From the IMG/VR virus record IMGVR_UViG_3300008952_000005, positions 96,001 through 160,000 of that record: DNA of 64,000 bases; one strand, written 5' to 3'. Positions 27,727-54,262 of the stretch are shown one piece after another. Below the pieces are notes generated by a model. That model ran no database searches and was not told the DNA's origin. It saw nothing but the letters and a program-made list of their open reading frames with translations. Source of the stretch: a virus. Position 1 is the first letter of the stretch; each line of letters starts with the position of its first letter. The position numbers and the translations under genes were made by a program.

Positions 27727-28020
27727 TTATTTCTTCCTTGTTCTCATACTAGATGTTGGTTGAGCACCTCTTACGTGAACCATACCACCCATAGTATTTT
27801 CTTTCTTTTTATTTCTTGGTTCTACTTTTGGATCAGCAGACAAAAAAGGTCTTTGATTTACTGCTGTTGTATAAGCAGCGTGTAATCCAACACCTCTAAC
27901 ATTTTTTCCACCTGCTTTCTTTTTAGGTGGTGTATCACCTAAACTTGCTATAGGTTGTACATTTGAATAGTTTCCTATTCTAACACCTGTTGTACCTATA
28001 AACTCTTTAAAACTTTTCAT
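27727..28020 (-). CDS. basic protein with capsid-targeting-like N-terminus
   Basis: starts MKSFKEFI. Confidence 0.6.
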   Translation of the reverse strand: MKSFKEFIGTTGVRIGNYSNVQPIASLGDTPPKKKAGGKNVRGVGLHAAYTTAVNQRPFLSADPKVEPRNKKKENTMGGMVHVRGAQPTSSMRTRKK

Positions 28021-28343
28021 ACTCTTGCTTTTTCTTTAATAGTCTTTTTTCTTTTAGGTGTTTCAATTTTAATTTCTTCTTTCACAACTCCACTTATTTC
28101 ATCAATCTTATTTTCAAGTTTATTTAACACTTTATAAACACCTTTCAATACAACATTGTTATTGTCTTCACTCTCTTGTACTTTTCTTTTTAAAGTACCC
28201 ATAACTCTTTTCTTACCAGTTGGATTCATATCTACACCACCGTGTGCTACTGCATTTGCTGGTGCGTCTTCTTTTTTTTCTTTATCATCAATCTTATTGA
28301 TGAGTTCGTCCATCATATCTTTATAATGTTTTGGCATACTCAT
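28017..28343 (-). CDS. hypothetical late protein
   Basis: charged; KEDAPANAV motif. Confidence 0.6.
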   Translation of the reverse strand: MSMPKHYKDMMDELINKIDDKEKKEDAPANAVAHGGVDMNPTGKKRVMGTLKRKVQESEDNNNVVLKGVYKVLNKLENKIDEISGVVKEEIKIETPKRKKTIKEKARV

Positions 28344-28800
28344 ACTCCGATACTAGTTTATTATTTTGTTCATATATACCTACACCTAGACAAGTCATTA
28401 CTGGTTCATCTTCTATGTCTGGTATATCTCTTACTTCATTTAACATAGTTTCATACTGGTTAGTTTCTTTTAAATATGAAACAACACCTGCTTCTATTGC
28501 GTCTTTGTGTGCCATTAACTGTTTATCTTCTCTCAATATCATTGCCATAGCACCAAAAAAAGTACCAAACTTACTACCTAATCCAACTTTACCAAATAAT
28601 CTTTTCATATTAAAAACAAATCTATGTAAATATGTATATGCTTTTTTATCTTTACTATCTCTCAATGTCTTATTAGGTCTTAATACTTTACCTTTCTTAT
28701 CAATAATACCTCGTTTAAAAGCTTCTTGCTTTTCCCAAGATGTTACCAATAGTTTAACTACTCGGTAAGTTATTAACATATCTATTGCTCTACTTGCCAT
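28321..28800 (-). CDS. conserved T4-like hypothetical protein
   Basis: intact ORF, coupled to neighbours. Confidence 0.7.
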   Translation of the reverse strand: MASRAIDMLITYRVVKLLVTSWEKQEAFKRGIIDKKGKVLRPNKTLRDSKDKKAYTYLHRFVFNMKRLFGKVGLGSKFGTFFGAMAMILREDKQLMAHKDAIEAGVVSYLKETNQYETMLNEVRDIPDIEDEPVMTCLGVGIYEQNNKLVSEYEYAKTL

Positions 28801-29162
28801 TACAGTTCCTTTAACATTTGTTTTATCTTTTCATCTTCATCTACATCACCTAGTTCGTGTTCATAAAGTAATTTAAGATAGTTCAATACTGTTTTTAATA
28901 CTGACCAATATTCTCTATCTATTTTAAATAATAATAAAGTTATCGCTACATCTGCACTAAAAACATTTTGTAATACTACAATGTGATTAATAATTAATCT
29001 TATTTTAACGTCACCTGTAGTTTTATACTTACGAAATAACCTTTTAAGATATTTAAATCGTTTTATATCTTCCAAAAATTCTACATTATCTTCCAATGTA
29101 GGATTGCTATAATTTTGCTGAGCAAATAGCAACCAATTATCTTTGGTTATTTCCTCAAACAT
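28800..29162 (-). CDS. conserved T4-like hypothetical protein
   Basis: NY.NP...EF.EDIKRFKYLKRL...RLIINH pattern typical of marine T4-like phages. Confidence 0.7.
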   Translation of the reverse strand: MFEEITKDNWLLFAQQNYSNPTLEDNVEFLEDIKRFKYLKRLFRKYKTTGDVKIRLIINHIVVLQNVFSADVAITLLLFKIDREYWSVLKTVLNYLKLLYEHELGDVDEDEKIKQMLKEL

Positions 29163-29167
29163 CTGAC

Positions 29168-29593
29168 CTACACCAATTTAGCGTAGACCTTTGATGTTCC
29201 GTTTTTCAAAGTTTCATAATTAACTTCTAAATTTAGACCGCCAGATTTTTTGTGTGATATACCATCATCATTAATATCAGAACCGTCTGTATCTTTTCCA
29301 AACCTTCCACCAAATTGACTAACTTTCGCACTAACTTTTCCAGATGTTCCTTCCATATTAACTGGTGATACTGTTAAACCAATTCGGTTTAGTTTTTCTC
29401 TCAAACTATCTACCGCTTGTTGTGGTTTAAGGTATTCCATATCTCCTATAGAACCTACAAAAGCATTAACTCTATTTAATACTTCTGGATCGGAAACGTT
29501 ATGTACGCCTAAATTACCATCTTCAACTGCATTAGATGTTGCTGTTCCAACCATCTTGCCGTCTTCTGTTATGTGTTGTTTAAACGTTTTCAT
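29168..29593 (-). CDS. protein with capsid-targeting-like N-terminus
   Basis: starts MKTFKQHITE. Confidence 0.65.
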   Translation of the reverse strand: MKTFKQHITEDGKMVGTATSNAVEDGNLGVHNVSDPEVLNRVNAFVGSIGDMEYLKPQQAVDSLREKLNRIGLTVSPVNMEGTSGKVSAKVSQFGGRFGKDTDGSDINDDGISHKKSGGLNLEVNYETLKNGTSKVYAKLV

Positions 29594-29708
29594 CTTTTTC
29601 TTTTCCCTTTTCTTTTGCTGTGTCCTCTTTAGGACAATCAGCTATTACTTCTTCCTCAAAATCGTCCAAGTCTTTATCTTCATTAAAAATCTTAAACTTT
29701 TTTAACAT
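29580..29708 (-). CDS. 42-aa acidic peptide (not in ORF track)
   Basis: MLKKFKIFNEDKDLDDFEEEVIADCPKED... Confidence 0.4.
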   Translation of the reverse strand: MLKKFKIFNEDKDLDDFEEEVIADCPKEDTAKEKGKEKDENV

Positions 29709-29904
29709 CTTCTGTTTTAACTGGAATATCTCCAGTCATTCCTATTAACTTATTAACTTGTTGAATAGCGCCATTGATTGCATTTAAATTTGCTTTCATC
29801 TGACCTAAATCCACTTCAACTTGTTTTATATTTTTTGCCAACTTATCAAAATCTACTTGTAATCCTTGTGCTTCTGATTTAAGTTGCTCTATACTTATAG
29901 TCAT
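29692..29904 (-). CDS. small coiled-coil protein
   Basis: heptad pattern, GGAG SD. Confidence 0.6.
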   Translation of the reverse strand: MTISIEQLKSEAQGLQVDFDKLAKNIKQVEVDLGQMKANLNAINGAIQQVNKLIGMTGDIPVKTEDVKKV

Positions 29905-29926
29905 AATTATCTCCTTATATTATATA

Positions 29927-30388
29927 TTATGCAACTGCGTATCCGTTACCTGCAATTACGTTCCAATTTGAATTTTTAAATAACAAAGTAACTGTTTCAC
30001 CTACATTATTTAAAACGACATTTGTTCCGCCTCTTAAATTTGTTGGTGTTATAGTTATTGCATTACTACCAGACGTTGATGTATTAAGAACAGTTTTAAT
30101 TTGTCCATTTGAACCGTCTGCTAATGATACTGCTGCTGTTCCCGCCGTTGCGTTCACTTCTGTAACAGCACTATCTACATCTGCAACTAAAGTTCCAGAA
30201 CCTGTGCCTGTTAATGTTTGGGATGCTTGACCAAGACCTAAAAACGTTGGTACGTTATTAAATACATTTGCCGCTGATACTTTTTTGTTTATCGGTGTGC
30301 CTGATGGATCATCTATTACGTGAAACAGGTCTACACTTGCTATTGCGTTACCTAAATCGGTAAGCTGGGTGACTTTTTTATCTGCCAT
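29927..30388 (-). CDS. putative virion structural protein
   Basis: MADKKVTQLT..., G/T/N-rich beta character, late promoter upstream. Confidence 0.6.
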   Translation of the reverse strand: MADKKVTQLTDLGNAIASVDLFHVIDDPSGTPINKKVSAANVFNNVPTFLGLGQASQTLTGTGSGTLVADVDSAVTEVNATAGTAAVSLADGSNGQIKTVLNTSTSGSNAITITPTNLRGGTNVVLNNVGETVTLLFKNSNWNVIAGNGYAVA

Positions 30389-30448
30389 TTGTTTCTCCTA
30401 TTAACCCTTTCGGGAATGCTACTGTAGGTAATTCCTACATCATAATAT

Positions 30449-30456
30449 TATTTATA
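30449..30456 (-). promoter_or_regulatory. T4-type late promoter
   Basis: TATAAATA overlapping the 3' arm of inverted repeat 30454..30485. Confidence 0.7.
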
Positions 30457-30496
30457 TGGGCAACCCTATAAAGAATCGCCCATATATTATTGATTA

Positions 30497-30778
30497 TTAA
30501 GCAGCGTTTGTTAATGCTACTATCGTTTCGTACTGTACTCTTCCTGCTCTACCACCAGAACCAGTTGTCTTTAAGTTCCAACCTGCGTGTCCAGCACCTG
30601 CTGGTACTTGAGCATCCGCATAATTGAATAACCCTAAAGTTATTCCAGTAATAAAGTTATTAGCAGTTGCGTCTTCAAATAAATTTGTTCTATTTGCTGA
30701 CGTGAATGCTAATTTAGCAGCAGCACAAGCCCATAATGGTGCTCCAGCCGCCGAGTCTGCACTTGAATGTGATGACAT
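30497..30778 (-). CDS. putative small virion protein
   Basis: Ala/Gly-rich; HAGW...GSGGRAGRVQYETIVA; late promoter upstream. Confidence 0.6.
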   Translation of the reverse strand: MSSHSSADSAAGAPLWACAAAKLAFTSANRTNLFEDATANNFITGITLGLFNYADAQVPAGAGHAGWNLKTTGSGGRAGRVQYETIVALTNAA

Positions 30779-30834
30779 AGTATTCTCTCCTTTAAATTAA
30801 ATTGTTAAAGTACTCAATTCTTAATATATGTGTA

Positions 30835-30842
30835 TATTTATA
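30835..30842 (-). promoter_or_regulatory. T4-type late promoter
   Basis: TATAAATA. Confidence 0.7.
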
Positions 30843-30855
30843 AGAAAAAGGTGTG

Positions 30856-31350
30856 TTAGAAACCCAATTGTTTTAATTGTCTTATTGAATTAGACGCTGA
30901 AGTATGATATATTCCTATACCACCACGTTGTGTAAAACTATCTGTATTAGGTTTATAATCGTCAATTAATACTGCAGGACTTCTGTATCCTGTTTGAGCA
31001 TAATTTTGTTTCTGACTTCTCTTTACAAGATTAACTCTTGCACCACTTAAACCTAATTGACTTCTGCACCATTTAGTCTTACCTGGTATACAGTTAGGGT
31101 CTACATTACGGTCAACATATGCTGATAGAATATCTGGCGAATGCTTTTTTATATAATTCCACAGTTGTTTACCGTCTGATTGCCACGGCAATGTTTCCCA
31201 AAAAGTTTTATCATTTCTGATTGGGTTCCACTTATCTTGTTTTGTTAGGGACATCCATTTACTGATAGGGACTCCTGTTGCTTTCTCGGCACCTTTTTTA
31301 AAGTCTGCCAATACGCCGTCCATATCACAATAGAGTTTAGGAAGAGGCAT
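30856..31350 (-). CDS. HAD-family 5'(3')-nucleotidase/phosphatase
   Basis: CDMDGVLADF motif I, ILSA motif II, GK, LIDD motif IV. Confidence 0.85.
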   Translation of the reverse strand: MPLPKLYCDMDGVLADFKKGAEKATGVPISKWMSLTKQDKWNPIRNDKTFWETLPWQSDGKQLWNYIKKHSPDILSAYVDRNVDPNCIPGKTKWCRSQLGLSGARVNLVKRSQKQNYAQTGYRSPAVLIDDYKPNTDSFTQRGGIGIYHTSASNSIRQLKQLGF

Positions 31351-31367
31351 AATCTGAATTGCCTCCT

Positions 31368-33149
31368 TTAATTAGTATAACTTATCTCTGGATCAGTTTC
31401 AATTTTTGAAGCAGGGTTACCAGTCATAGTTCTACCTTTTGTAGGTTCATCTTTCTTTTTAGCAAGTTTTGCTTTTTCTGCTTTTTCTTTAAGTCTTGCT
31501 CTTAAAGTTTCATATTTTAGTTTGTAAGGACTTACTGCTTCTTTTTTAACTTCGTCTTTGTCTTCTTTGTCTTCTTTGTCTTCTTTTTTTTCTGCTTTAT
31601 CTCTTAAAAGTTTTTGTGCTAGTCCAACTGTTAAAGGAACTTCTCCTGTTTCTTTATCTGCAACAGGTTTAATTACTTTACCTTTTTCATTTTCTAATTT
31701 TGCTTTTAATACATTAATTTGACCTTGCAACGTTAAAATTTGTTTCTCTTGTGCTGCTGGGTCTTTAGCACTTGGACCATCTTTACCATCTTTAGCATCC
31801 CTTGTTGCTCTTATCTTTGCAATCTTTACACCTGGTTTGTTATCTTTTGCAATAGGTGGAATTTTACTTTCATTTCTTGTAGGCAACAGTACAGAGTCTC
31901 CTCTTGTTGCTGTTTCATTAGCTGCTTTATTCCAAATATTTCTGATAGTATTTTCTAAATTTGTTGATGGTTCTGGTTTATCACTACCAATAACATCTTT
32001 CTTTGGTTCTTTTTTATCTTCTGTAGTAGATACATTTGCTGTACTAAACTTAACTTCTTTTTTCTTATCTGCCATTTTAGAAACTTCTCCAGCGTCAATC
32101 GTTTCAGTAGTAGATACGTTAGCAGTTTTAAAATCAACTTCTTTTTTCTTGTCTTTCATTTTAGATACTTCGCCTGCGTCAATCGTTTCTTGCATATCTT
32201 CTGTAGGTCTTTGTGTTTCTATTCCTGAAATACCAAAATGTATATCTTGGTCATAACCTTCTGCAAGTTTCCATCCTTTTGCTAAATATTCTTTTTCTTT
32301 AGACTTATCTATTACGATAGTCTTGCCGTGTTTAGAAACCATTGTTTCTTTTTTAGGGTCTTTAAGTTGTCTTGGTAATTCTTCTTCTATATCATTACCT
32401 TTAGGTTGTTTTTCAGCAACTCTATAACCAAATCTATATTTTTTTCTAACACCTCTTGAAGCAGTACCTCTTCTTGAAGATGAATTAGCTCCACCTGGCA
32501 TTGCTTCTGAAACAGTTTCTTCCGACATTGCTTCTTGTCTTGCTAAATTCTTTTCGTTTGCTAAATGAGGTTTGATTCTATTGCCATTATATGCTCTTTT
32601 ATTTTCAGGTATCTTTTCTACTTTACCACCTTTGTCAAGAAAGTCTTTCATCAACTGCTCATCAGCGTGTTTTCCATTAGAAGGTTTCCATTCTTCTTTT
32701 AATGCTTTTCCTTTATCCCAATAATGCCAGCTTGTTTTATCCCAAATTTCATCAGGTCCTATTAGTCGTTTAAATTCTCTTTCTGCCTTATTAAAAGCAT
32801 CAATTTTTTTCATTTTATTTTCTTTTGCATATTTAATAATAAGTGCCGCTACTTCTTTACCAGTTTCGTTAGTTGAAGCTATCCAACTTTGACTTTCTGG
32901 ATCTTTGTCCATCTCATCTTTACCTTTTTTGTATTCTCTAAATTTTGCTGCTATATTATTCCAGCTAACACCTTCGTCTAGCTTATTAAAAAATGCTATC
33001 TTTTCTTTAGGTGTCATTGAACCAATACCACCCATAGTATTTTTTAATGCTTCAGCGAATTTCTTTTTATAACCTTCTTCTTTATACTTCGCTTGATGTT
33101 GATATACCACATCCTCAATACTGCCTGGTTTTTGTTTTAAATATGTCAT
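31368..33149 (-). CDS. large charged low-complexity late protein (putative internal head protein)
   Basis: K/E-rich, many (L/I/V)-x-E sites; start moved to MTYLKQ. Confidence 0.6.
   Translation of the reverse strand: MTYLKQKPGSIEDVVYQHQAKYKEEGYKKKFAEALKNTMGGIGSMTPKEKIAFFNKLDEGVSWNNIAAKFREYKKGKDEMDKDPESQSWIASTNETGKEVAALIIKYAKENKMKKIDAFNKAEREFKRLIGPDEIWDKTSWHYWDKGKALKEEWKPSNGKHADEQLMKDFLDKGGKVEKIPENKRAYNGNRIKPHLANEKNLARQEAMSEETVSEAMPGGANSSSRRGTASRGVRKKYRFGYRVAEKQPKGNDIEEELPRQLKDPKKETMVSKHGKTIVIDKSKEKEYLAKGWKLAEGYDQDIHFGISGIETQRPTEDMQETIDAGEVSKMKDKKKEVDFKTANVSTTETIDAGEVSKMADKKKEVKFSTANVSTTEDKKEPKKDVIGSDKPEPSTNLENTIRNIWNKAANETATRGDSVLLPTRNESKIPPIAKDNKPGVKIAKIRATRDAKDGKDGPSAKDPAAQEKQILTLQGQINVLKAKLENEKGKVIKPVADKETGEVPLTVGLAQKLLRDKAEKKEDKEDKEDKDEVKKEAVSPYKLKYETLRARLKEKAEKAKLAKKKDEPTKGRTMTGNPASKIETDPEISYTN
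32022..32189 (-). repeat. 84-nt (28-aa) tandem duplication
   Basis: TIDAGEVSKMKDKKKEVDFKTANVSTTE followed by TIDAGEVSKMADKKKEVKFSTANVSTTE. Confidence 0.9.
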
Positions 33150-33153
33150 AGTA

Positions 33154-35091: not shown

Positions 35092-35092
35092 T

Positions 35093-35515
35093 TTATTTGA
35101 ATCTATTATCTCTTTTGAAATTGTATGATAAACTATGTCTGCTGTATAAGTGTCCGCCGTGAGTGTCAAATACACGGTTTAATGAGTCCATATACTTTCT
35201 GTCTAAAACATTTCCTCTAGCACCTTTTGCTGGAGCATTAACACCAGCTGCCTTCAAAACATCTCCTGTTACCTTATCTACGAAGGCGTGGATACTTCTC
35301 TTTTGTCCTCGTTCCGTATCCCAAATTTTGATATACTTACCACCTACACTTGTAGCTACATCACGTCTTTGGTCTCTATATAAATTGGCAAATTGTGGGT
35401 GTCTTTTGATTTTTTCCCTAGCGATTTTAAGGTAATCATCTACGCCCTTTAAGACCATAGCCGAACTTTCTGCTACGTATAGTTTATGTACGTATTCTTT
35501 GAATTTAGTTGCCAT
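35093..35515 (-). CDS. conserved phage protein with capsid-targeting-like N-terminus
   Basis: MATKFKEYV...VAE; GKYIKIW..SIHAFVDKVTGDVLKAA..APAKGARGNV. Confidence 0.65.
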   Translation of the reverse strand: MATKFKEYVHKLYVAESSAMVLKGVDDYLKIAREKIKRHPQFANLYRDQRRDVATSVGGKYIKIWDTERGQKRSIHAFVDKVTGDVLKAAGVNAPAKGARGNVLDRKYMDSLNRVFDTHGGHLYSRHSLSYNFKRDNRFK

Positions 35516-35523
35516 TTCTCTCT

Positions 35524-38265
35524 CTAAAGTTTCTCAATCATCTTAGCGACTACTTCGTTTAGTTTCGCTTTCCACTCTTCTTTATAACGTTGTTTATATT
35601 TATCTATTGTTGAATCTTGGTTTGACCATTCTTTTACTTCCTTTGTAGTTAACTTATCTTCACCAACTTTAGCATCCGTTGCCTTACCTGGGCGTGATAT
35701 GTATGTATCAGTAGGTTTTCCTCGGTCTTTTGAGTCAACAGGAGGTGCATCCTCTTTTTCTCCAGGTGTCATCTGTTTACAATGATTAGCATAATCAGCA
35801 CCTATTTCATAACTATCTCTAATTGCTGTGTAAGGTTTAGGTACTGGTATCGTTTCAACTGCTTCAAATCCATAATCAATGTCTAGGTTGTATTCTCTTA
35901 ACAATGGTTCTTTATCAGCAGCAACTGGTATACAATCCCATATCCAGCATTTGTGTAAATTATTATTTGTATCTTCTAGTACAACATAATTCGTACCTCT
36001 TCGTACTACTTTACCTTGTTTATCTTCTTTAAGATATTTAACTTGGTCTCCAATATTGAATATCATCTCCCTAACGTATAGGTCTCTAACTTGTTTCTGT
36101 TCAAACTGTCCTAATGTCATAATAGGTTTTGAAGTATCTGGTTTATAGTCTTCTCTTATACCCATACCTTTTCTTACTGCTTTAAACAGTCCATCAACAT
36201 CTCTAAAATGAGATGGTAGTCCTCTCTTAAATGACGCTACATCACCTTTTTGAGCAGCATCCCTCATCTTGCTCGCACTCATACCTGAAGCACCCTCAGC
36301 GTCTGGATCACGCTCTCCAGCAGATATAACATCTATTGTTTTAAAGTTATAATATCCGTGTCTATTTTTCTGGTCGTTATATTTTTTAAGTATCGTTTCA
36401 AATTCTCTTACTCTATCACTACCTACTACAAATTTAAGAACATTATGCCCTTTGTTATATAACATAGTAGCAATATCTAATATCATATTTGTTGTATTAA
36501 TTTCAATGTTTCTAGCATATTGTGGAAATATCTTTTTCATCCAAGATAATTTCTCTCTAGGAGATAATGGATTCTTTTTACTATCTTCTGACCTACTGAT
36601 ATAGATTTTATAATTTCTATCTGCTCTTACAACTTTATTAATAAGTTTTTCGTGACCTATTGTTGGAGGATTAAATCTTCCAAATGTAATTGCAATAGAT
36701 TTTTCTCCTACTGCTTCTGATTTTAAACTTTTTATTTCTGCGTCTGTTACCTTTTCATCTTCTAATATTTTTTTACATTTGTAAAAGAATTTTGTGTAAT
36801 GAAATTTCTCCAAATACTTATAGACAACATTTTTAGGTAACTTATGAGCGATACCATATTTTTTAATCTCTTCTGGTGTCAAAGGTCTATTAAATAAATC
36901 TCTTCTTGCCTGCATAAGGTTATCACCCATTTCGGACATCTTCTTTATAGCATCCTCTATCTCTTCTAATTTCTCAGCAGTTTTTATATGTAAATCTAAT
37001 ATATCATTTGGTTTTAATTCTTTTAACTCTTCATAGTCAACTATATCTCTTTGTAATTCTCCTTTAACTACATCTAGTTCTGCCACTTTCTTTTGAAATT
37101 CTGCCTCATATACTTTAGGATCAAACGTTTGTTCTTTAGGTCTCTTATCAAATTTCTGTTTGAATACATCATAAACTCCTGTAGCAGTTTCAAGATGAGC
37201 GTCATTTACTTTAGGGTCTGTTTGAACATAATAATTAATCGGGTGTTGCGTACCTGGTACTAACTTACCACTAACTTCTCCTACAGATTGTCTTGCTTCT
37301 AAACCAACTGTTTCTCTATCTTTTTCTGGTATGTCTATCAATACATCAATATCTAAATCTGCGTCATTTCTATATCTCTTTCCAAGAATAGAACCTATTA
37401 ATTTTACTGACACAACAGGACCCCATTTTGAAAAATGTTTTGCACCTGCTTTAATCATATCTAAAACTTTTGGTTTTAATTTTGGATTTTCTGTTTCTGC
37501 GTCATCAAATACACCAACAGCATATCTACTTCTAGGTACATCTATAATACTTTCTCCCATTACCAATCTTCTACCAACACTAAACATTGTATTCTTAAAC
37601 ATTTGTTCTCTTGACATCCAATTTTTTGCAATATGACTTTTAACTGGTGCTCTCATATATCGTCTAACTAATCTGTCACAACCTGCTAATGTTTGTGACA
37701 CTAATTCTTTATCTGACCTATTATTATCTACTATAATAAAATTTGATTGACCAAATAATCTTTGAAATTTACCTATATTAGATTGCACTTTCTCCCAAGA
37801 TGTTTGTACAACATACTCTGGTATTTGCCTACTTCTTATTTTATTTCTTTCTAACGCAACAGGTAATGTTGTGTTAACAAATATCATATAACAATCATAA
37901 CCTAATGCGTGTAGCATATTATATTCGGAATTTATTCTTGCATAATCTCTTCCAGTTGCGTCAATAACTAAACCTAATCTGCCTCCTACATATTGGTGTA
38001 ACTGTTTCATCATTGTACCTTTTGCTCTGGCTCTTATAAGGTCTCTAAAATATTTTTCTTGGTCAGGCATTTTGTCTGAAAGTCCTGCCTGTTTCAATGC
38101 TCTTTCAAATATTGTATCTGAATTAACAAACTTTAATCCAGTTCCAGCAAATGCGGAAGAAGCGATAAAGGTTTTTCCTGAACCTGGTCCACCCGCCATA
38201 AAAAAGGCTTTAAATATACCTGGATCGTATACACCTTCTTGTAATAAAAATTCTTTAAACTTCAT
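35524..38265 (-). CDS. fusion of P-loop kinase, Pol-beta-type nucleotidyltransferase and HxGH cytidylyltransferase-like domain
   Basis: GGPGSGKT plus VIDAT; IGSI..RYRNDADLDID; FGRFNPPTIGHEKL, GSDR, SASKMR; C-terminal KOW/SH3-like region. Confidence 0.8.
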   Translation of the reverse strand: MKFKEFLLQEGVYDPGIFKAFFMAGGPGSGKTFIASSAFAGTGLKFVNSDTIFERALKQAGLSDKMPDQEKYFRDLIRARAKGTMMKQLHQYVGGRLGLVIDATGRDYARINSEYNMLHALGYDCYMIFVNTTLPVALERNKIRSRQIPEYVVQTSWEKVQSNIGKFQRLFGQSNFIIVDNNRSDKELVSQTLAGCDRLVRRYMRAPVKSHIAKNWMSREQMFKNTMFSVGRRLVMGESIIDVPRSRYAVGVFDDAETENPKLKPKVLDMIKAGAKHFSKWGPVVSVKLIGSILGKRYRNDADLDIDVLIDIPEKDRETVGLEARQSVGEVSGKLVPGTQHPINYYVQTDPKVNDAHLETATGVYDVFKQKFDKRPKEQTFDPKVYEAEFQKKVAELDVVKGELQRDIVDYEELKELKPNDILDLHIKTAEKLEEIEDAIKKMSEMGDNLMQARRDLFNRPLTPEEIKKYGIAHKLPKNVVYKYLEKFHYTKFFYKCKKILEDEKVTDAEIKSLKSEAVGEKSIAITFGRFNPPTIGHEKLINKVVRADRNYKIYISRSEDSKKNPLSPREKLSWMKKIFPQYARNIEINTTNMILDIATMLYNKGHNVLKFVVGSDRVREFETILKKYNDQKNRHGYYNFKTIDVISAGERDPDAEGASGMSASKMRDAAQKGDVASFKRGLPSHFRDVDGLFKAVRKGMGIREDYKPDTSKPIMTLGQFEQKQVRDLYVREMIFNIGDQVKYLKEDKQGKVVRRGTNYVVLEDTNNNLHKCWIWDCIPVAADKEPLLREYNLDIDYGFEAVETIPVPKPYTAIRDSYEIGADYANHCKQMTPGEKEDAPPVDSKDRGKPTDTYISRPGKATDAKVGEDKLTTKEVKEWSNQDSTIDKYKQRYKEEWKAKLNEVVAKMIEKL

Positions 38266-39480
38266 TTATTTCCATCCTTTTGGCAACGTAAAGTTTGCCC
38301 TACTAAATTCTAATCTATCTACTATTTTTACTGCACCTGCTACTCTATCTACTGCAACATATCCTTCAGGTGCTGTTACTCTATATCCTGTTCCAGTTTT
38401 AATGTAGTGTCCTATCTGTTGAATTTGATTCATCTTTTGTATCAATGTGTTCTTCGCATTACCTAAAGTTACGTGACTTGCTATCGCCATATATAAACCT
38501 GATTTATTTTGATTAATAAATCTTAATCCATCTGCTAATATATCTCTATATTTTTGTTTTGCTTTTTCAGTTTTTCTTTGGTCTATTTCTGTCTTCAAAA
38601 TGTTCTCATAATAATCTCTAAACATATCTTGCAAGACTCTAACCTTTGCCATACTGCCTTTATTATTTCTAATGTAATGATTGAAAAATGCTTTTAATCT
38701 AAACCCTACAGATAAAGGGTCACTAGCACGACTAGTCATTTCATCTAATATCTTACTTGCTTTACCTAAAGAACCTTCTGCCATTCTTAATTGAGCATCA
38801 AATTTTCCTAGTTCTGATTTAGTAAAAGTAATAGAACCAGAGTCATCCTTATATTCAGCACTCGCAACCCACACTCTTGAATTACCTGACCCTCTAACAT
38901 TACCAAAACTTGCACTTAAACTTTTCATATCTTTACCAGTATACATTGTATGAAATACAATACCCATTTTAGCACGAGCAATTTTCTTACCTATATTGCT
39001 ATTTGATTGTACTGCATATGTGATTGTATTTGGTGTAAAGGTTATCATTTTTTCACCATCAATTGAAGCTGATTTTTTATCGTTAGTAAATAATAAATCA
39101 CCTTGTAAAATTTGTTTAATGTTTAAACTAGATAAATGATTAAGACATACTGATAATTTTTGAGCGACAGGACCAGAATGGTTCCGTCTTATGTCTGCTG
39201 TTGTGTAATTGATTTTGGGAGTTTTGTTGAATATAGATTTAGTACCAACAAAGAATTGACCGTTTTCAGGATTGACACCACATATAATAGCAGGTGCCCC
39301 ATCCCATTTAACAGTAGTATTGATTTTTGCTCCCGAGTGACCTGCGAGCATATCTCTTACTGATTTTAGAAAGTTAATTGCGTTAACTCCACCAGCCGAA
39401 CCTCTATTGATTATATCATCTTCTAGGTGTTCTAGGTGTGTGTTCTTGTCGTTTGTGGTAAAACCTTTAAAACTAAACAT
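38266..39480 (-). CDS. conserved T4-like protein (DUF6267-like) with ATP-dependent ligase-type motifs
   Basis: HLEHLED, TVKWDGAPA (KxDG), QGDLLF, PEGYVAV, AVKIVDR. Confidence 0.65.
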   Translation of the reverse strand: MFSFKGFTTNDKNTHLEHLEDDIINRGSAGGVNAINFLKSVRDMLAGHSGAKINTTVKWDGAPAIICGVNPENGQFFVGTKSIFNKTPKINYTTADIRRNHSGPVAQKLSVCLNHLSSLNIKQILQGDLLFTNDKKSASIDGEKMITFTPNTITYAVQSNSNIGKKIARAKMGIVFHTMYTGKDMKSLSASFGNVRGSGNSRVWVASAEYKDDSGSITFTKSELGKFDAQLRMAEGSLGKASKILDEMTSRASDPLSVGFRLKAFFNHYIRNNKGSMAKVRVLQDMFRDYYENILKTEIDQRKTEKAKQKYRDILADGLRFINQNKSGLYMAIASHVTLGNAKNTLIQKMNQIQQIGHYIKTGTGYRVTAPEGYVAVDRVAGAVKIVDRLEFSRANFTLPKGWK

Positions 39481-39544: not shown

Positions 39545-39552
39545 TATTTATA
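39545..39552 (-). promoter_or_regulatory. T4-type late promoter
   Basis: TATAAATA upstream of 38266..39480. Confidence 0.7.
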
Positions 39553-42106: not shown

Positions 42107-42107
42107 A

Positions 42108-44956: not shown

Positions 44957-45254
44957 CTTTTAATTGTTGCTCCAATATTTCTATTAATATATCACCAATG
45001 TAATTAAGAAAATCTACGTTCTCATTTAAATCAAGATTATTTGGATTCTGTTTGATTGTATAATCAAATTTCATTGGTAATGTGCCATCTTTATTTTCTT
45101 CTTTTGCAAATCCAACTTTGCCATAATGATATACGACATCTTTATACTTACCTTCGGTAAGTTTAATACAAGAAAAATCATCACCTTCTCTTTGAGCAAA
45201 GGTGTATTTCTTATTCTTCTGATCCGTATGTAAATTTTTGTCTTGCGTGTTCAT
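44934..45254 (-). CDS. hypothetical protein in the gp40-syntenic position
   Basis: lies between uvsX and gp41, as T4 gp40 does; sequence similarity not verified. Confidence 0.55.
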
Positions 45255-46233
45255 CTATCTTATCTAATACTTCTTTTGTAAAATATTTATCTGGATTCTC
45301 ATTGACATTTTTACCAAATACTTTAGAACCATCTGGCATTTCATATCTTGTTGATACTTTCTTAAAGATACCTGCCTCTTCACCTAGTTCTAATAGTCCA
45401 TAATGTTTGTCCAACCCTTTTTTATAAGTTAACTTGACATCAATTTGAGCGTTTTCTTTTGTTATTCTTGATTTGTATATTTTACAATGTATTATATTTC
45501 CAATAACCTCGGTACCCAATTTCTCTTTTCGTTTACCAAGATAGATGATTGTTGAAGCAGCGTATTTCAATCCTGAACCGCCACCCATTTCTTTTTGTGG
45601 GAACATTGAACCAATAACATCATACGTGTGATTGGTCATTAACATAGGAACATTTGCTTGTCCTAGTTTAAGTGTTAAAACTCTAAATGTAGATTTGACA
45701 ATTTGTGACCTTGTCATATCTCTTGTTTCTTTACCTTCTGCTGTGTCGGTCATTTCTTTTGTAGTAGATAGCATTCCTAAACTATCTAACACAAACATTA
45801 AAGGTTGTCTATCTTTTTCGTCTTGTTCTAAATATTTGTCTACTATTTTAATTGCTTGACTTCTAAATTCTTGTACTGTTGATACTGGTACTACTACAAC
45901 TCTTTTACTATCAACACCTCTTGACTCTATCATATCTTTTGATACTGCATTTTCTGATTCAAACAGAACAACGCCTGCGTCTTTGTCTTTATCTAAAAAT
46001 CGTTTGAGAATACCTAATGCGAAAAATGTTTTACCAGTTGCTGCCTCACCTGCAATTGCTGTAATACGGTTGCCTGGTAACCCACCGTAAATTGAACCTG
46101 AAAGAAGAGCATTAAAAGAATAAGAACCTGTATCTATAAATGAAGTTACATCACCTGCTGTGATACCTTCACTTGCTAGACTAGCAAATTCATTTCCTGT
46201 TTCTTTAATAATCTCTTTTAGAAAGTCTTTCAT
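45211..46233 (-). CDS. uvsX: RecA-like recombinase
   Basis: [47 protein letters not shown]. Confidence 0.93.
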
Positions 46234-46649: not shown

Positions 46650-46657
46650 ATTATTAT

Positions 46658-47963: not shown

Positions 47964-49009
47964 ACAAAAAACGGATTCACTTTCTTTAATCTCTTCTCTA
48001 TGTCTTTAAAATAATTCTTTTCTCTTTCTATCAAGTAATACTTACGACCTTCTAATAACGCCGCTTCTCCAGTAGTACCTGTACCTGCAAATGGATCCAA
48101 TACTGTTCCATCTTTAGGTGTAACTAACTTAACAAGATATCTCATTAACTCTAATGGTTTAACTGTAGGGTGTTCTGTATTTCCTTTTTCTTTTTTGCTT
48201 GCCTTGGCACAATAGAAAAATCTAGCAGCCGTACCTGTATCTCCTTGAAATGATTTACCATCATCACCTCTTTTTTTATATTCGTGGTCATAAAATAAAA
48301 AACTACCTTTTTCTTTTTGTACAGGTGCTTTTGCTCCTTTATCTTCACCAAATTTTCTAAACTCTTCTATAACTTCTTCTGATCCGTCGTGTATAACATT
48401 AGCGGGATATCTTCCATCTATTTTTTCTCCTGTACCAATTTTCTTTAAACCTAATTTATAAACTGCCTCTTTATGTTTTTTAGGTTCTCTTCTGTTTTTA
48501 GTTGTGTCCCACTCATATCCAGGCACTCTACACTCATCTATGTTTAAACTTTTATTAACACCCTTACGTGCCATTACAATTGGTTCACACGCAGGTTTTA
48601 AATAGTTTTTTCTTTTAGGAAAACCACTACCATATAACCATTGTATCATATCAAATATTTCAAACCCAGCGTCTTCTACTGCAACTGCCATTCTATGATA
48701 ATTTCTAGTGGCAGCAAATGATAAGAGTACTGCACCTGGTTTCATAACTCTATATACTTCTTTCCAAAAATCTTTATTAAATGCTATATCACCACCGTCC
48801 CAAGTCTGTCCCATAAATCCTTTTGCCGCTCTATGATAAGGACCATTACGTCCTTCTTTCTCATCTTTATTATTAATGCCTTTTTGACCTGGACCAAATC
48901 GTTTAAGTATAGACGCCAAATGATATGGTGGATCAGTTACACACGAATCAAATCTATTATCTTCAAGTGTTTTTAAATGTTCTAAACTTTCTGCGTTTTT
49001 AATATCCAT
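47960..49009 (-). CDS. beta-class N6A/N4C DNA methyltransferase
   Basis: VTDPPY, WLYGSGFPK, HPTVKPLELMRYL, VLDPFAGTGTTG. Confidence 0.9.
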   Translation of the reverse strand: MDIKNAESLEHLKTLEDNRFDSCVTDPPYHLASILKRFGPGQKGINNKDEKEGRNGPYHRAAKGFMGQTWDGGDIAFNKDFWKEVYRVMKPGAVLLSFAATRNYHRMAVAVEDAGFEIFDMIQWLYGSGFPKRKNYLKPACEPIVMARKGVNKSLNIDECRVPGYEWDTTKNRREPKKHKEAVYKLGLKKIGTGEKIDGRYPANVIHDGSEEVIEEFRKFGEDKGAKAPVQKEKGSFLFYDHEYKKRGDDGKSFQGDTGTAARFFYCAKASKKEKGNTEHPTVKPLELMRYLVKLVTPKDGTVLDPFAGTGTTGEAALLEGRKYYLIEREKNYFKDIEKRLKKVNPFFV

Positions 49010-49130
49010 ATGCCTTACCTAAAAATCTCACTACTAATAAAAATATAATAAACTGGTAGAGTTTTATATTAGTATTCTGTGCTAGAAAACCTCCAAACAA
49101 TACAGCAAAAAACATTATAAAGTTGTTCAT
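48999..49130 (-). CDS. 43-aa membrane peptide (not in ORF track)
   Basis: MNNFIMFFAVLFGGFLAQNTNIKLYQFIIFLLVVRFLGKAYGY; ATGA overlap with gp43. Confidence 0.45.
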   Translation of the reverse strand: MNNFIMFFAVLFGGFLAQNTNIKLYQFIIFLLVVRFLGKAYGY

Positions 49131-51616
49131 CCTAAAAATGCCTCCAGACTTGCTTTCTTTTCGTGTTCCCAACCTATTGAATTTAATATAAATCTCATAG
49201 GGTCTAGGAAAGTTTTCTCAAACTGTACTTCATAATCAATATACTCTTGTAGATTAAACTCTTTTGGTAGTTTAGTTATATAACTAATCACATCAAACTT
49301 AAATGGATTTGCTTGTAGTAATTTAATAAACTTAATCTTATCTCCTTCTTGTATATAAGGATACTTATTCTGCAATCCAAATTCTTTTATTTGATGATTA
49401 TAAATCAAAGAACCTTTAACGTGTATTGGTGTACCTTTGATAAACACATCTTTACTACTAGCATATTTTCTCATATTATTACAAGACCTTGGAAATGATA
49501 TCTGCTCAGCAGACATACTCATAAATTCTTTTTTGAAACCTGCAATGAAAGTATGTAAATCAGATTGTTCTTTTGACATAATTATTTTAATTGCTTCTTT
49601 AATCTTACCTCGGCATACTTGTGGAGTTGAAGATTTAATTGCCTCTACACCCATAATCTTTAGTTTAGGTTCAGACAATCTTACATCTTCCTCATCTAAT
49701 ACATTTAACATATATCTTTTTTTCGCAACCCATATACCTTTGTTCGCAATAACTTCACGTGCCATAACCATTGCGTTCTTAAATGCGTTGGTATAGTCTG
49801 CAATGTCTTCAAATTGTTTTGCGATAAACGGTTCCAATTTGTTATCACATACCTTAGCAAGAAAATCACATACTTGTTGGTCTGTTTTATCTTTACAAGT
49901 CTTCTCTACAAGTTTATCAAACGATACATAAATTGAATCTGTATCAGACGCTAGTACATAATCTATTTCATTATGTGTTTGTAATATTTGATTTAGATAT
50001 TCATTTACTTTTTGTTCTACAAATCTAATAATGAATTGTCCTGCTGTAGTTACAGCACTTGCTTGTGCTATATCATAATATCTAAAGTACTGATTACCTA
50101 TTGCACCATAACAACTGTTTAATGCAATCTTTCTTGCCCATTGTACATTATGACATCTAGCAATTTCTTTTTTTAAATCGTTTGTTGGATTCTTTTGATA
50201 TTCTCTTTGTGCTTTTAACTCACGTTTCTTATATATCACACGGTCTTTATAAATCTTTTCAATCATTTCAGGTAAGAACCCTTGACTATCTCTTTTAAAC
50301 ATTGCACCGTTAGGTGTTATACAAGCACCTTCAGTTTTTAAATAATCTAGGGGTGTCTTCTTACTCAACATTTTATTCACAGAAACACCAGATGGTTTAA
50401 CACCTAATATTTTTTCGGGAGAAATATTATATTGTACAATAATATGTGGATAAAGAGAGTTGATATCAAAAGACACCACCCATTTTTGCATACCAAGTCT
50501 AGGTTCTTTCACATACGCACCTTCATACTTGGTGTCCTTTACGTGGTCCTCTCTAGGAGGTACACAAATCTTTTTTGTCATCAAGTGGTTTGCGATTAAT
50601 GTATCCCAAACTCTCACCTGTGAGAAAATATCGTTATAGTTTACTTTAGTTTCATACGCAAAGGTTAAAGATAAATCAATTAACCCTAACTTGTCTTCTA
50701 AACCATCAACTATTTCTACGTCTTGAATATTATACTCTACGAATTTTTGAAAATCTTTTGTATAGAAATCTTTAAATGTTGGATATGGATTTTCTACTTT
50801 AGTTTCACCTAATTCAGTTTCACCTATAAAAGATAATCTATAACTCTCTTGTCTTACTGGTATAAACCATTTATATAAATCAAGATAATCTAACATTGCA
50901 ATACCAAACAATGAATAATATGTATTAGGTCTACCTCTTATAATTATTTCTTCTTTATGTATTAAGTTCCAAGGCGACATTCTACTTGCAACTTTAGCAC
51001 CTGCAACTAATTGAATTCTATTCATCAAGTATGGTAGGTCAAAGAATTTAGTATTCCAACCTGTAATAACATCTGGATAGTTCTTCAACCAGAATTTCAT
51101 AAACTCCATTATTAAATGTCTTTCATCTGTACATTTAATATAAGTTATGTCTGTACGTAAAGTTTTAAACTCACCAACACCCCACGTTATAAGTTGTTTG
51201 TTTGATTGATTCTTAACTGTAATACATAATAGTTCTTCAACTGGATTATTTACTTCTGGAAATCCATTTTCACAGGTACATTCTATATCTAATGTAAATA
51301 TTTTAATTAATTCTTTTGACCACTTAACTTGTTTTGTATACTCTTCATTGATGTATTGATAATGAAATCTATCAAGTCCATAGACTGGTGCATTTTTAGT
51401 AGCGACATCACGTTTAAATCTACGAGCAGCGTCAATAGATGAAAAAGTAATAGGTCTTAAATTATGTCCTTGTAATGATTTAAATTCTTCTTGATGTTGT
51501 GATACTGAATATAATGTTGGAGAAAAATTAATCCTCTCTTTAAACTCTTTGCTATCTCTTACACCTCTAACAAGTAGTTTGCCTTTATGTTCTATTACAT
51601 TTTTATAAAAGTTCAT
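49127..51616 (-). CDS. gp43: family B DNA polymerase
   Basis: DIEC exonuclease I, GWNTKFFD, SFDINSLYP, KIALNSCYG, SDTDS, KKRY. Confidence 0.97.
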   Translation of the reverse strand: MNFYKNVIEHKGKLLVRGVRDSKEFKERINFSPTLYSVSQHQEEFKSLQGHNLRPITFSSIDAARRFKRDVATKNAPVYGLDRFHYQYINEEYTKQVKWSKELIKIFTLDIECTCENGFPEVNNPVEELLCITVKNQSNKQLITWGVGEFKTLRTDITYIKCTDERHLIMEFMKFWLKNYPDVITGWNTKFFDLPYLMNRIQLVAGAKVASRMSPWNLIHKEEIIIRGRPNTYYSLFGIAMLDYLDLYKWFIPVRQESYRLSFIGETELGETKVENPYPTFKDFYTKDFQKFVEYNIQDVEIVDGLEDKLGLIDLSLTFAYETKVNYNDIFSQVRVWDTLIANHLMTKKICVPPREDHVKDTKYEGAYVKEPRLGMQKWVVSFDINSLYPHIIVQYNISPEKILGVKPSGVSVNKMLSKKTPLDYLKTEGACITPNGAMFKRDSQGFLPEMIEKIYKDRVIYKKRELKAQREYQKNPTNDLKKEIARCHNVQWARKIALNSCYGAIGNQYFRYYDIAQASAVTTAGQFIIRFVEQKVNEYLNQILQTHNEIDYVLASDTDSIYVSFDKLVEKTCKDKTDQQVCDFLAKVCDNKLEPFIAKQFEDIADYTNAFKNAMVMAREVIANKGIWVAKKRYMLNVLDEEDVRLSEPKLKIMGVEAIKSSTPQVCRGKIKEAIKIIMSKEQSDLHTFIAGFKKEFMSMSAEQISFPRSCNNMRKYASSKDVFIKGTPIHVKGSLIYNHQIKEFGLQNKYPYIQEGDKIKFIKLLQANPFKFDVISYITKLPKEFNLQEYIDYEVQFEKTFLDPMRFILNSIGWEHEKKASLEAFLG

Positions 51617-51941
51617 CTGGTCTCAAATGGAGAATTAAACCGTCAAGGTCTTTAGTAAGTTTTATTTGACAACTTAATCTACTAACACCTGGTTTATATC
51701 CTCTTTCATATTCTAATTGTTCTTCTTCTATTGATAAGTCTTTTGGTTTTGGTACTTTGTCTATCCACTTCTCATCAACATATACGTGGCACGTACAACA
51801 CATACAATTACCACCACAATCGGCAGGAATTTCTGGTATTGGTACGTGTGATTCAAATTTCGCTGCCTCCATTGCACTCAAACCTTCTTTAGTCTGAACA
51901 CGAATCTTGGATCCGTCCCTTACAAAATATACATCTATCAC
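51603..51941 (-). CDS. fdx: 2Fe-2S ferredoxin (ISC/adrenodoxin type)
   Basis: CGGNCMCCTCHVYV...SRLSCQI. Confidence 0.88.
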   Translation of the reverse strand: MIDVYFVRDGSKIRVQTKEGLSAMEAAKFESHVPIPEIPADCGGNCMCCTCHVYVDEKWIDKVPKPKDLSIEEEQLEYERGYKPGVSRLSCQIKLTKDLDGLILHLRPDELL

Positions 51942-52273
51942 TTATCTAATGTAGGCAAACCTGTTTCAGTTATTAACTGTTTTTTAGGTGTTACAATAGA
52001 TGAAGTACTACTGACATAGTTTTGTGTAATATGTTCTTTTGGTTTTGTTATAGATACAACTTTATCTGCGTTGACTTCAACAATATCTCCATCTGAATAT
52101 GGAGCGTAAGGCGTCATCATCAACTGTATAGGTTGTCCCTTTGCTGATTGTGTTGGTATGATAACGTACCCTTTATGTATTGTGATAACTTTTGAACCTA
52201 CTGTAATTTTTCCGATAACATCTTCTCCAGTTATCAATCTACAGATTAAGATTTTAGTTTCGCTAAGTGCCAT
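51938..52273 (-). CDS. conserved T4-like hypothetical (Sm-like beta protein)
   Basis: RLITGEDVIG...MTPYAPY pattern. Confidence 0.6.
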   Translation of the reverse strand: MALSETKILICRLITGEDVIGKITVGSKVITIHKGYVIIPTQSAKGQPIQLMMTPYAPYSDGDIVEVNADKVVSITKPKEHITQNYVSSTSSIVTPKKQLITETGLPTLDK

Positions 52274-52292
52274 TATATTTCTCCTTGATTAT

Positions 52293-52321
52293 AATATATC
52301 ATAGAATTAAAAATTAGTCAA
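52293..52321 (-). promoter_or_regulatory. sigma70-like promoter upstream of the fdx-gp43 unit
   Basis: TTGACT-N17-TATATT with TG extension. Confidence 0.7.
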
Positions 52322-52631
52322 TGCTAGTTCTAGGTACAAATGGTGTATACCCTTGTTCTTCTGCTTTTTGGTCGTCTTCTCCTACAATGGCATTAACTTC
52401 TGGAACATAATGCTTAAGCATATCTTCCACACCTTGATGTAATGTTTGTTTAGACATTGCACATCCTGAACAACTACCTGCTAGTTCTAATTTTGCAACA
52501 CCTAAATCCATATCAAAGTCTAAATAATTTATAAACCCACCGTGTTGAGCCACAGCAGGAGCAACTTTATCTTCCAAGATAAATTTAATGTCCTTTGCTA
52601 TCTCTTCTTTACTTCTGGTTATCTCAACCAT
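52314..52631 (-). CDS. NifU/NfuA C-terminal domain Fe-S carrier
   Basis: VAPAVAQHGGFI, LAGSCSGC, TLHQGVEDML; start moved to MVEIT. Confidence 0.88.
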   Translation of the reverse strand: MVEITRSKEEIAKDIKFILEDKVAPAVAQHGGFINYLDFDMDLGVAKLELAGSCSGCAMSKQTLHQGVEDMLKHYVPEVNAIVGEDDQKAEEQGYTPFVPRTSID

Positions 52632-52644
52632 TGTAGACCTTTCT

Positions 52645-52848
52645 TTAGTTTTTTTGTAAGTTAATTGCTGAATTGCCTTTAGGCGTTTCAGTAATATCAA
52701 AAGATATTTGGTCACCTTCGTTCAGTTCTAAATTTGCTTCTTGAACCGCTGAAGAATGAACAAAAACATCTTTTTCGCTATCTTCTCTAGCAATAAAACC
52801 ATAACCCTTTGTCGGGTTAAACCATTTTACTTTTCCGTTTATACTCAT
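52645..52848 (-). CDS. cspA: cold-shock protein
   Basis: GKVKWFNPTKGYGFI (RNP1), DVFVH (RNP2); start moved to MSING. Confidence 0.93.
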   Translation of the reverse strand: MSINGKVKWFNPTKGYGFIAREDSEKDVFVHSSAVQEANLELNEGDQISFDITETPKGNSAINLQKN

Positions 52849-52849
52849 C

Positions 52850-54262
52850 TTATTTTTTATTTTCTCCTTTCTTATCATCTAAACTATATTTTGTCGTAAT
52901 TATATATTTTCTATTAGGGTTAACCATAACATTAAATCTATTCATAGTTTCCCTATCAAATAATATTTTAGATTTTTCATCCCTATCATCTAGGGTAAAT
53001 TCTACTTCTTTGTAATATCCACCTGCAAATTTTACATCAAGTTTAATTACTATTCTTTCTTCTTTATAATCTCTTAATCCACCTACTTCAATTGTTTGCT
53101 TACGTACTATATCGTTTGATAGTGTCTTACCTTCTAACGACCAAGTAACTTTACCACCTGATTTTTTTATTTTATCAGCGTGTATAACAGACGTACCTGA
53201 ATTACCTGTATCAAATTTACCTACTATACGTCCAAATGGATGTATGTAGACAACTTCTTTATACCCACACATAGTTGGAACTTTTTTCCAATGTTCTCTA
53301 TTTTCAAAGTGTTGTATAATTTCTTTACTTAAATTTCTATTTGTTGCTTCTTCTATACCTTCTGTACCTGGTGAAGAGTTAACTTCAATAACAAATGGTT
53401 CTTCGTTTACTCTATCTGCTGACGGTATAAAATCTACTGCAACCCATTGACCATCTACTGCCTTAGCAGCTTTTAAACTTTCTTCTGTTTCTAATTTTGT
53501 TAATTTTAATTCTTCTACTTCTGCACCTCTTGATACATTACTTCTAAAATCTCCTGGCACTACGTGTCTTTTCATAGCAGCAAATACTTTACCTTGTAAT
53601 ACTAAAACTCTAGCATCCCATTTAGTTTTTATATATTGCTGTAATAATATATCAGAATCCTCATCTTGTTTATTAAGTAATTGTACTATTGAATCTAATG
53701 ATTTTTCTGATTCAATAAACAAGACACCAACACCTTTTGAACCTCTTAATGTCTTTAAGATAACAGGAAACTTTTCTTCTAAACTATTAAAAGATTCCAT
53801 TGAATTTTCTGGATCAGTTACCAATACTGATTTAGGTTGTCTAATACCATAGTCTGCTAATCTTAATGAAGTTCTATATTTGTCGGCACACATACTAACA
53901 CATTCTCTACTATTAACTACACACACTTGGTGTTTTTCTAATCTTGATACCAAGTCCATCCAACTATCTCTACGTACTACTGAACCTCTTATAACAGCAA
54001 CTGTATCTCTTGCCGATACTCTAAATCCTTTGTTGTCATCTTGATTATGGAAATACATTTCTCCATCATCTTCAACAGTTACATACCCACCAGTATTTCT
54101 ATAGATGTATGACTTATGACCAAGCTTATCTGCTTGTTTCATTAAGTTCTTTGCTGTATGGAAATTTAAATCATTTTCAGGTTCATCTGATATAATGATT
54201 AATCTATATGATCCAGAAGTTTTTGCTTCTGTTATGTAATCTTTGAATTTTGGTATCTGCAT
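52850..54262 (-). CDS. RimK-like ATP-grasp ligase fused to a RimK-associated aspartic protease domain
   Basis: DKYRT, PVILKTLRGSKGVGV, LLQQYI, DFRSNVSRG, IEVNSSPG, then KFDTGN; N-terminus MQIPKFKDYITE. Confidence 0.85.
   Translation of the reverse strand: MQIPKFKDYITEAKTSGSYRLIIISDEPENDLNFHTAKNLMKQADKLGHKSYIYRNTGGYVTVEDDGEMYFHNQDDNKGFRVSARDTVAVIRGSVVRRDSWMDLVSRLEKHQVCVVNSRECVSMCADKYRTSLRLADYGIRQPKSVLVTDPENSMESFNSLEEKFPVILKTLRGSKGVGVLFIESEKSLDSIVQLLNKQDEDSDILLQQYIKTKWDARVLVLQGKVFAAMKRHVVPGDFRSNVSRGAEVEELKLTKLETEESLKAAKAVDGQWVAVDFIPSADRVNEEPFVIEVNSSPGTEGIEEATNRNLSKEIIQHFENREHWKKVPTMCGYKEVVYIHPFGRIVGKFDTGNSGTSVIHADKIKKSGGKVTWSLEGKTLSNDIVRKQTIEVGGLRDYKEERIVIKLDVKFAGGYYKEVEFTLDDRDEKSKILFDRETMNRFNVMVNPNRKYIITTKYSLDDKKGENKK

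Follow-up and report, generated by a model that had tools for sequence, protein, structure and literature searches.

Unrelated proteins of a pelagiphage-like myovirus share N-termini that are probably T4-type capsid-targeting leaders

Eight genes in a 64,000-nucleotide stretch of viral DNA (bases 96001-160000 of IMG/VR record IMGVR_UViG_3300008952_000005, hereafter the window) encode proteins that belong to different Pfam families or to none and that begin with the same type of short peptide. Their products are 97, 108, 42, 141, 140, 913, 404 and 470 amino acids (aa) long. We consider it probable that these shared N-termini are capsid-targeting leaders (propeptides) of the kind known from bacteriophage T4. 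Loading of the proteins into the head and trimming by the head protease are well supported by inference, and by analogy with T4 the cargo may be injected and may have an anti-defence or takeover role. A sequence-only reading of the window had listed seven such N-termini, all of which are found at the starts it gave, on the minus strand; the eighth gene (28017-28343) was absent from its list. In the peptides below, a slash marks a known or predicted cleavage position.

Results

The window is part of a single contig of 177,460 bp with 32% G+C, in which nearly all genes lie on the minus strand. The DNA polymerase shares 74% identity with the enzyme of Pelagibacter phage Mosig EXVC030M and ~49% with those of cyanophages, and the gene order is that of HTVC008M and the Kyanoviridae. 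The genome is that of a T4-like myovirus of the HTVC008M/Mosig pelagiphage group in the Kyanoviridae. It encodes the Gp23 capsid protein (PF07068), the T4_CASP scaffold gp22 (PF25623) and the Peptidase_S77 prohead protease gp21 (PF03420), at genome coordinates 171012-174309, outside the window. The propeptide site of the capsid protein reads AYLAE/AAPT, compared with SFLTE/AEIG in T4 gp23. Since L-A-E/A is kept where T4 gp23 has L-T-E/A, a conserved specificity of the prohead protease is supported.

The claimed resemblance to the T4 capsid-targeting sequence (CTS) holds, as the leaders in the window match those of IPI, IPII, IPIII and gp61.1 almost letter for letter. In the T4 controls (NC_000866), IPII and IPIII begin with MKTYQEFIAE/A, and IPI begins with MKTFKEF and is cut after ITE at position 19. 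T4 gene 61.1 (18966-19130; 54 aa, unstudied) has a perfect CTS, MKTFKEFIKE/D. Genetic work in T4 assigned CTS residues 4 and 7 to targeting and residues 8 and 10 to processing (PMC9026906), and these are the residues that are conserved here. The aromatic targeting residues 4 and 7 are matched exactly in the 97-aa and 404-aa proteins, and the 141-aa protein has a family-conserved His at position 7. In the 913-, 140- and 470-aa proteins the register is shifted by -1, +1 and +2, respectively, with the three-residue spacing of the aromatics kept. The leader ends with (L/I)-x-E in the 141-, 913- and 470-aa proteins, with M-x-E in the 108-aa protein, with V-A-E in the 140-aa protein and with F-N-E in the 42-aa open reading frame (ORF).

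The motif FK[EQD][FYH] occurs nine times in the ~270 ORFs of the whole genome (59,093 aa). Five of the nine begin in the first 8 residues, where 0.15 would be expected; 5000 trials with shuffled N-termini never reached five. All leader matches fall between 27.7 and 54.3 kb of the window. The pattern K-x-F-K-(E/Q/D)-(F/Y/H)-x(1-3)-E, which the sequence-only reading had proposed for a genome-wide scan, matched three N-termini and nothing elsewhere in the proteome. Adding the cleavage site to a strict regular expression leaves little power in a single genome (P only ~0.03 even for T4), and such a pattern was not relied on. To avoid circularity, a leader score was built from the T4 leaders alone (NC_000866), and every N-terminus was scored with it. 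The 97-aa and 141-aa proteins, with scores of 32 and 30, rank first and second of 270 (background P <= 1e-4). The same score picks out five such N-termini in P-SSM2 and at least three in the syntenic block of HTVC008M. When the 60 nt upstream of seven of the starts were compared, no common sequence was found. The upstream DNA being unrelated, the shared element is the peptide and not a repeated DNA cassette; the dissimilarity likewise rules out a mobile DNA cassette or a shared promoter or ribosome-binding site.

The 913-aa protein (35524-38265, minus strand) is, according to Pfam and PHROG, a fusion of an AAA_33 P-loop kinase (residues 22-162), a region with a Pol-beta-type nucleotidyltransferase (NTase) motif and an HxGH nucleotidyltransferase. 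Its leader, MKFKEFLLQE/G, occupies codons 38236-38265. The HxGH part matches the PHROG cytidyltransferase (3e-68) and has a weak likeness to NMNAT and PPAT. The middle Pol-beta NTase is a putative assignment from a G-S...D-x-D motif and sub-threshold matches, and a PDB sequence search with the 913-aa protein returned nothing useful.

The kinase was compared over 80 IMG/VR loci, with homologues of 58-97% identity. The 33 distinct orthologue N-termini have leaders of unlike sequence, 8 to ~24 residues long. At the junction, P1 is Glu and P3 is Leu or Ile in all 33, and the conserved G-[VLI]-Y-D-P-G-I-F-K-A-F-F follows without a gap. Most relatives encode the kinase separately, in a gene of ~228 aa, followed by an NTase gene with a leader of its own, which ends with [ILVM]-x-E before [SA]-[IV]-I-D-I-P-R (P1 is Glu in 22 of 23). 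The fusion junction in the present protein, LVMGE/SIIDVPR (E238/S239, window codons 37549-37554), corresponds to the end of these separate NTase leaders. The correspondence suggests that the head protease may split the fusion at E238/S239 and release two modules.

The 404-aa protein (38266-39480, minus strand) belongs to DUF6267 (Pfam 1.9e-124) and begins with MFSFKGF, which had been called a weaker match. It does lack L-x-E, but it is conserved, with M1, F4 and K5 invariant in an alignment of 20 orthologues reaching down to 56% identity. Distant DUF6267 orthologues begin with MYSFKQYL[SN]E/[SA], directly before the conserved KNTHLEHLED. A candidate KxDG motif I, K58-W-D-G61, is also invariant in the 20 orthologues. 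A PDB sequence search with DUF6267 gave no match, and searches with an AlphaFold2 (AF2) model (pLDDT 64) by Foldseek against the PDB and by VIA-align wide gave helical-bundle matches only, below a meaningful Z. A homologue search with the 404-aa protein returned only near-identical marine variants.

The 470-aa protein (52850-54262, minus strand) combines a RimK-family ATP-grasp ligase (TIGR00768, 173.1 bits versus a cut-off of 143.4, residues 36-318) with a RimB-like protease (PF05618, residues 333-456). Its leader, MQIPKFKDYITE followed by Ala (54227-54262), is separated by a linker from the RimK fold, which begins near residue 19. In both the RimK and the kinase domains, the leader stands ahead of the first fold element. 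We compared the RimK-protease over 78 IMG/VR loci. The Mosig orthologue has the leader MQVQPFKNYLEE followed by Ala, and relatives at 51% identity have MEKFKSFITE/AK. Among representatives of 50%-identity clusters, some RimK-proteases have a leader and many start at the first beta-strand. One distant leader-bearing RimK-protease adjoins the portal, protease, scaffold and gp23 genes. Since many homologues, including one from a T4-like relative, start without the leader, the leader is a removable add-on. Regarding cargo identities, the assignments of the sequence-only reading stand for the kinase/NTase fusion and the RimK-protease (Pfam, PHROGs, NCBIfam), whereas for the ligase-like protein the invariant K-W-D-G of the 404-aa sequence is the whole basis.

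Bacterial RimK-type enzymes modify ribosomal protein S6. We note that the phage carries, in addition to its RimK-type enzyme, a bS21-like gene, a 67-aa ORF (window 58639-58842) whose homologue is annotated in Mosig.

The remaining leader genes encode small proteins. The 97-aa protein (27727-28020, minus strand), identified with the T4-derived score, has the leader MKSFKEFIGT (codons 27991-28020). There is no Glu at position 10, as in T4 IPI, and the orthologues retain MK[ST]FKE[FY]IGTTG; Pfam and PHROG searches with this protein found no family. The 108-aa protein (28017-28343, minus strand), identified from orthologue N-termini, has a degenerate leader, MSMPKHYKDMMDE followed by Leu. The leader has decayed in this gene, and distant orthologues begin with the canonical MKTFKKFRKE/DAPANNVGGG; one distant orthologue resembles T4 gp61.1 across ~50 aa. 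Both the 97-aa and the 108-aa proteins are very basic and glycine-rich.

The 141-aa protein (29168-29593, minus strand), identified by score and alignment, consists of the leader MKTFKQHITE/D (29564-29593), an indel-rich linker and a small alpha/beta domain. In the alignment M1 and E10 are invariant, K5 and H7 are near-invariant, the linker is variable, and the domain behind it is conserved; the family keeps M-K-x-F-K-Q-H-I-x-E. In a mediocre AF2 model, residues 1-31 are disordered. Searches assigned no family, and the BFVD relatives are uncharacterised. With this moderate model, Foldseek matches the folded domain to uncharacterised phage proteins (E 1e-7 to 2e-4), and one matched domain belongs to a longer protein (1134 aa) with the name anti-CBASS Acb1 (A0A6J5LTH6). 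A 42-aa ORF (29580-29708, minus strand), recognized as an ORF and from the fused form in relatives, starts with MLKKFKIFNE/D. It shares 14 nt with the start of the 141-aa gene, in a different frame and inside an A-rich run. In four relatives at 55-83% identity (L191, L204, L251 and L220), the two are joined in a single ORF that has two tandem leaders. Because close relatives keep the ORFs separate, the split is unlikely to be an assembly error. Finally, the 140-aa protein (35093-35515, minus strand) is a DUF7717 protein (PF24835, phrog_818) with a 16-aa leader, MATKFKEYVHKLYVAE followed by Ser. Its orthologues include Syn9 gp69 (MATFAEFCE/T) and an S-PM2 protein (MTTTFAQFASE/Q), and metagenome orthologues have the same architecture.

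The exact DNA pattern for M-K-x-F-K-[EQ]-F-[LIVMF]-x-E was found in at least 120 IMG/VR stretches, versus 5 for the reversed pattern. Details were taken from the 80 loci returned, which contain 84 matches. All 84 lie at or near an ORF start, with a median of 8 open codons upstream and a single outlier of 178. At position 3, which the pattern leaves free, 71 of the 84 have Thr or Ser, as in T4, and the residue after Glu is mostly Ser or Ala. Clustering sorts the 77 complete leader proteins, 54-966 aa long, into 36 unrelated groups, among them several HxGH nucleotidyltransferases. Homologues of genes from T4-like genomes are present in 75 of the 80 loci, and the other five loci are very short.

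One cargo family has been found in virions. The cyanophage core cytidylyltransferase T4-GC190 was detected by mass spectrometry (MS) in purified S-SM1 virions by Sullivan et al. 2010 (PMC3037559; the detection is taken from the main text and the spreadsheet flag). In an independent study, the S-SZBM1 cytidylyltransferase SSZBM1_140 was found in CsCl-purified particles (PMC9146016). T4-GC190 is homologous to residues ~515-840 of the 913-aa protein at 33-40% identity. It lies in the same syntenic late block beside the primase gene and has the same type of leader: MKSFSQFLTE in PSSM2_194, MKKFSAFLNE/A in SSM1_190 and MRFRQFIIE/A in SSZBM1_140. It differs from the fusion in being a stand-alone gene of ~360-420 aa. 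In both studies T4-GC190 is treated as a virion protein or as an auxiliary metabolic gene whose function is unclear, and a targeting leader is not mentioned (PMC3037559, PMC9146016). Our literature search found no paper linking these virion enzymes to a targeting leader and none combining 'capsid targeting' with cyanophages. The S-SM1 block also encodes the MS-detected virion proteins T4-GC425 and T4-GC426. The earlier claim that enzymes are pre-loaded into the head thus gains from the comparative data and from the presence of an NTase orthologue in two virion proteomes, but for the RimK-protease packaging would be optional. We note that the hypothetical protein SSZBM1_139 (457 aa, OL473597 78988-80361), encoded beside the cytidylyltransferase, is in virions and has no leader, so not all head cargo of the block uses the tag.

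A late-promoter motif, TATAAATA, was located by motif scan ahead of two runs of leader genes. One copy (39545-39552, minus strand) is 65 nt upstream of the 404-aa gene and heads the run of the 404-, 913- and 140-aa genes. Another (30449-30456, minus strand) heads the run with the 141-, 108- and 97-aa genes. The motif has 35 copies on the coding strand versus 4 on the other strand, and most copies are intergenic, 16-36 nt before structural genes.

Discussion

Several observations weigh against reading the shared N-termini as capsid-targeting leaders. The virion evidence concerns the NTase of cyanophage relatives, and the pelagiphage case is read from genes by analogy. Cleavage of the leaders is deduced from sequence comparison. 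The conserved P1 and P3 residues of the enzyme junctions might belong to the domain fold. The leaders of the 97-aa and 404-aa proteins are without L-x-E, and the 140-aa protein has V-A-E at positions 14-16. The gene for the RimK-protease comes after regA, in a run that looks early or middle and has no late motif close by; in one T4-like relative the gene occupies this position too, and its product starts without a leader. The late motif is missing within 120 nt upstream of most orthologues elsewhere and of the T4 ip genes; the timing evidence is therefore weak, and the motif was dropped as a general mark of leader genes. The start of UvsX also shows that similar N-terminal helices arise for other reasons.

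UvsX (window 45211-46233) has an N-terminus that looks like a CTS and is conserved in all Kyanoviridae examined. It is probably the N-terminal helix of RecA and a warning of false positives in motif scans. This look-alike favours an explanation in which the shared peptides form an N-terminal amphipathic helix that is conserved for another purpose, for instance oligomerisation, binding to a replication or membrane complex, or regulation of stability, without head targeting. The early-looking operon of the RimK-protease would also fit such a helix, as would Staphylococcus phage K, an AT-rich, non-T4 control in which we found no strict enrichment and a few middling look-alikes, so that weak matches alone are not evidence. 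We consider this explanation unlikely, since the peptide nearly matches the T4 CTS as defined by experiment, is found in hardly any contigs other than T4-like ones and stands on at least 36 unrelated cargo families. Moreover, the protease motif ends exactly at the domain boundary, and one cargo family is physically present in virions.

It is also improbable, in our estimate, that the proteins enter the prohead but act or are degraded there, for example in assembly, in DNA condensation or as enzymes working on packaged DNA or head proteins. The 97-aa and 108-aa proteins do resemble DNA-associated internal proteins in being small, very basic and glycine-rich, and in T4 the protease likewise cuts the core proteins gp22, gp67 and gp68. 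However, a filled head does not provide the nucleotide substrates on which the kinase, nucleotidyltransferase and ATP-grasp enzymes depend, and CTS cargo of T4, including foreign enzymes in fusions up to the size of beta-galactosidase, is packaged and delivered into the infected cell (PMC9026906).

Chance or composition, by which an AT-rich genome with Lys as its commonest residue would yield Lys/Phe/Glu-rich N-termini and the pattern would have been chosen afterwards, has very little probability despite the moderate-score matches in phage K, because it is contradicted by the shuffles, by the T4-fixed score, which picks the same genes, by the forward and reversed pattern counts, and by the conservation of the leader in orthologues where the linker behind it varies.

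If the shared N-termini are capsid-targeting leaders, the following sequence of events may be proposed. A leader of 7-16 residues, with aromatics three apart and usually followed by I/L-x-E, would be carried by cargo made late in infection. The leader would bind the scaffolding core of the prohead, and the cargo would be enclosed as the shell forms. The gp21-type protease would then cut after Glu and free the cargo inside the head, and a second cut at the fusion junction would separate the kinase from the nucleotidyltransferase part. When the next cell is infected, the freed proteins could leave the head together with the DNA and act ahead of phage gene expression, by analogy with IPI-III and Alt of T4; this step is the least certain one.

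The tag and its mechanism are already known from T4. What is new is that the same tag occurs in the pelagiphage/cyanophage family, that large enzymes and a fusion with an internal site carry it, and that a previously unexplained virion enzyme can be linked to it. The likeness to the CTS of IPI-III includes the N-terminal position, a length of 10-19 aa, MKT[FY][KQ]EF with aromatics at 4 and 7, in part of the set also I/L at 8 and Glu at 10, a leader followed by unrelated cargo, and a gp21-type protease with a gp22 scaffold in the same genome. The differences are that the present phage belongs to the Kyanoviridae and is known from genes alone, that its cargo includes large multi-domain enzymes (913, 470 and 404 aa) instead of only small basic proteins, that the leader length is variable, and that a fusion has an internal site. 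T4 Alt is an ADP-ribosyltransferase that is packaged in the head, trimmed by gp21, injected and active at once. It sets a precedent for enzymes that travel in a T4-type head and are processed by the head protease, but it has no MKTYQEF-type leader, and the enzyme classes here are different. The giant phages SPN3US and phiKZ also have many head-internal proteins that are cut after Glu by a prohead protease (PMC5694885, PMC7411985); their leader sequences are different and their cargo set is much larger, whereas here the leader is the T4 one itself.

We tentatively propose, as an idea that may well be wrong, that abundant ocean T4-like phages deliver a pre-made enzyme kit, comprising a polynucleotide-kinase-like P-loop kinase, the Pol-beta and HxGH NTases, the KxDG ligase-like protein and the RimK-protease, which the head protease would release from precursors that are tagged or fused and which would act in the first seconds, before phage expression. 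Its role could possibly be, for example, repair of cut tRNA or RNA, restoration of nucleotide cofactors, or modification of S6; either an RNA-repair kit or a cofactor-salvage kit would be a possible reading. Myoviruses of the pelagiphage and cyanophage groups rank among the most numerous marine viruses. If the T4 tag works in these phages, a simple sequence rule would predict which of their many unknown genes encode proteins that travel in the particle and are the first to act. It would also explain the 'cytidylyltransferase' of cyanophage virions in the 2010 and 2022 studies, and it would mean that whole enzymes and enzyme fusions are delivered, not only small inhibitors.

The position of the leader genes can be compared between T4 and the cyanophages. 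The product of T4 gene 61.1 is similar across ~50 aa to small leader proteins from marine phages, and an orthologue of the 108-aa protein is among them. The gene adjoins the primase gene 61, as the leader-gene block adjoins primase in Syn9, S-SM1, S-SZBM1 and P-SSM2, and this position may be an ancestral internal-protein locus. Beside ipI in T4, a 152-aa ORF (73952-74410) starts with the leader-like MMEFKDF. In one IMG/VR locus (L135; 14,224 bp, 27% G+C), four consecutive genes start with MKTFKQFI-x-E, an arrangement like that of the T4 ip cluster.

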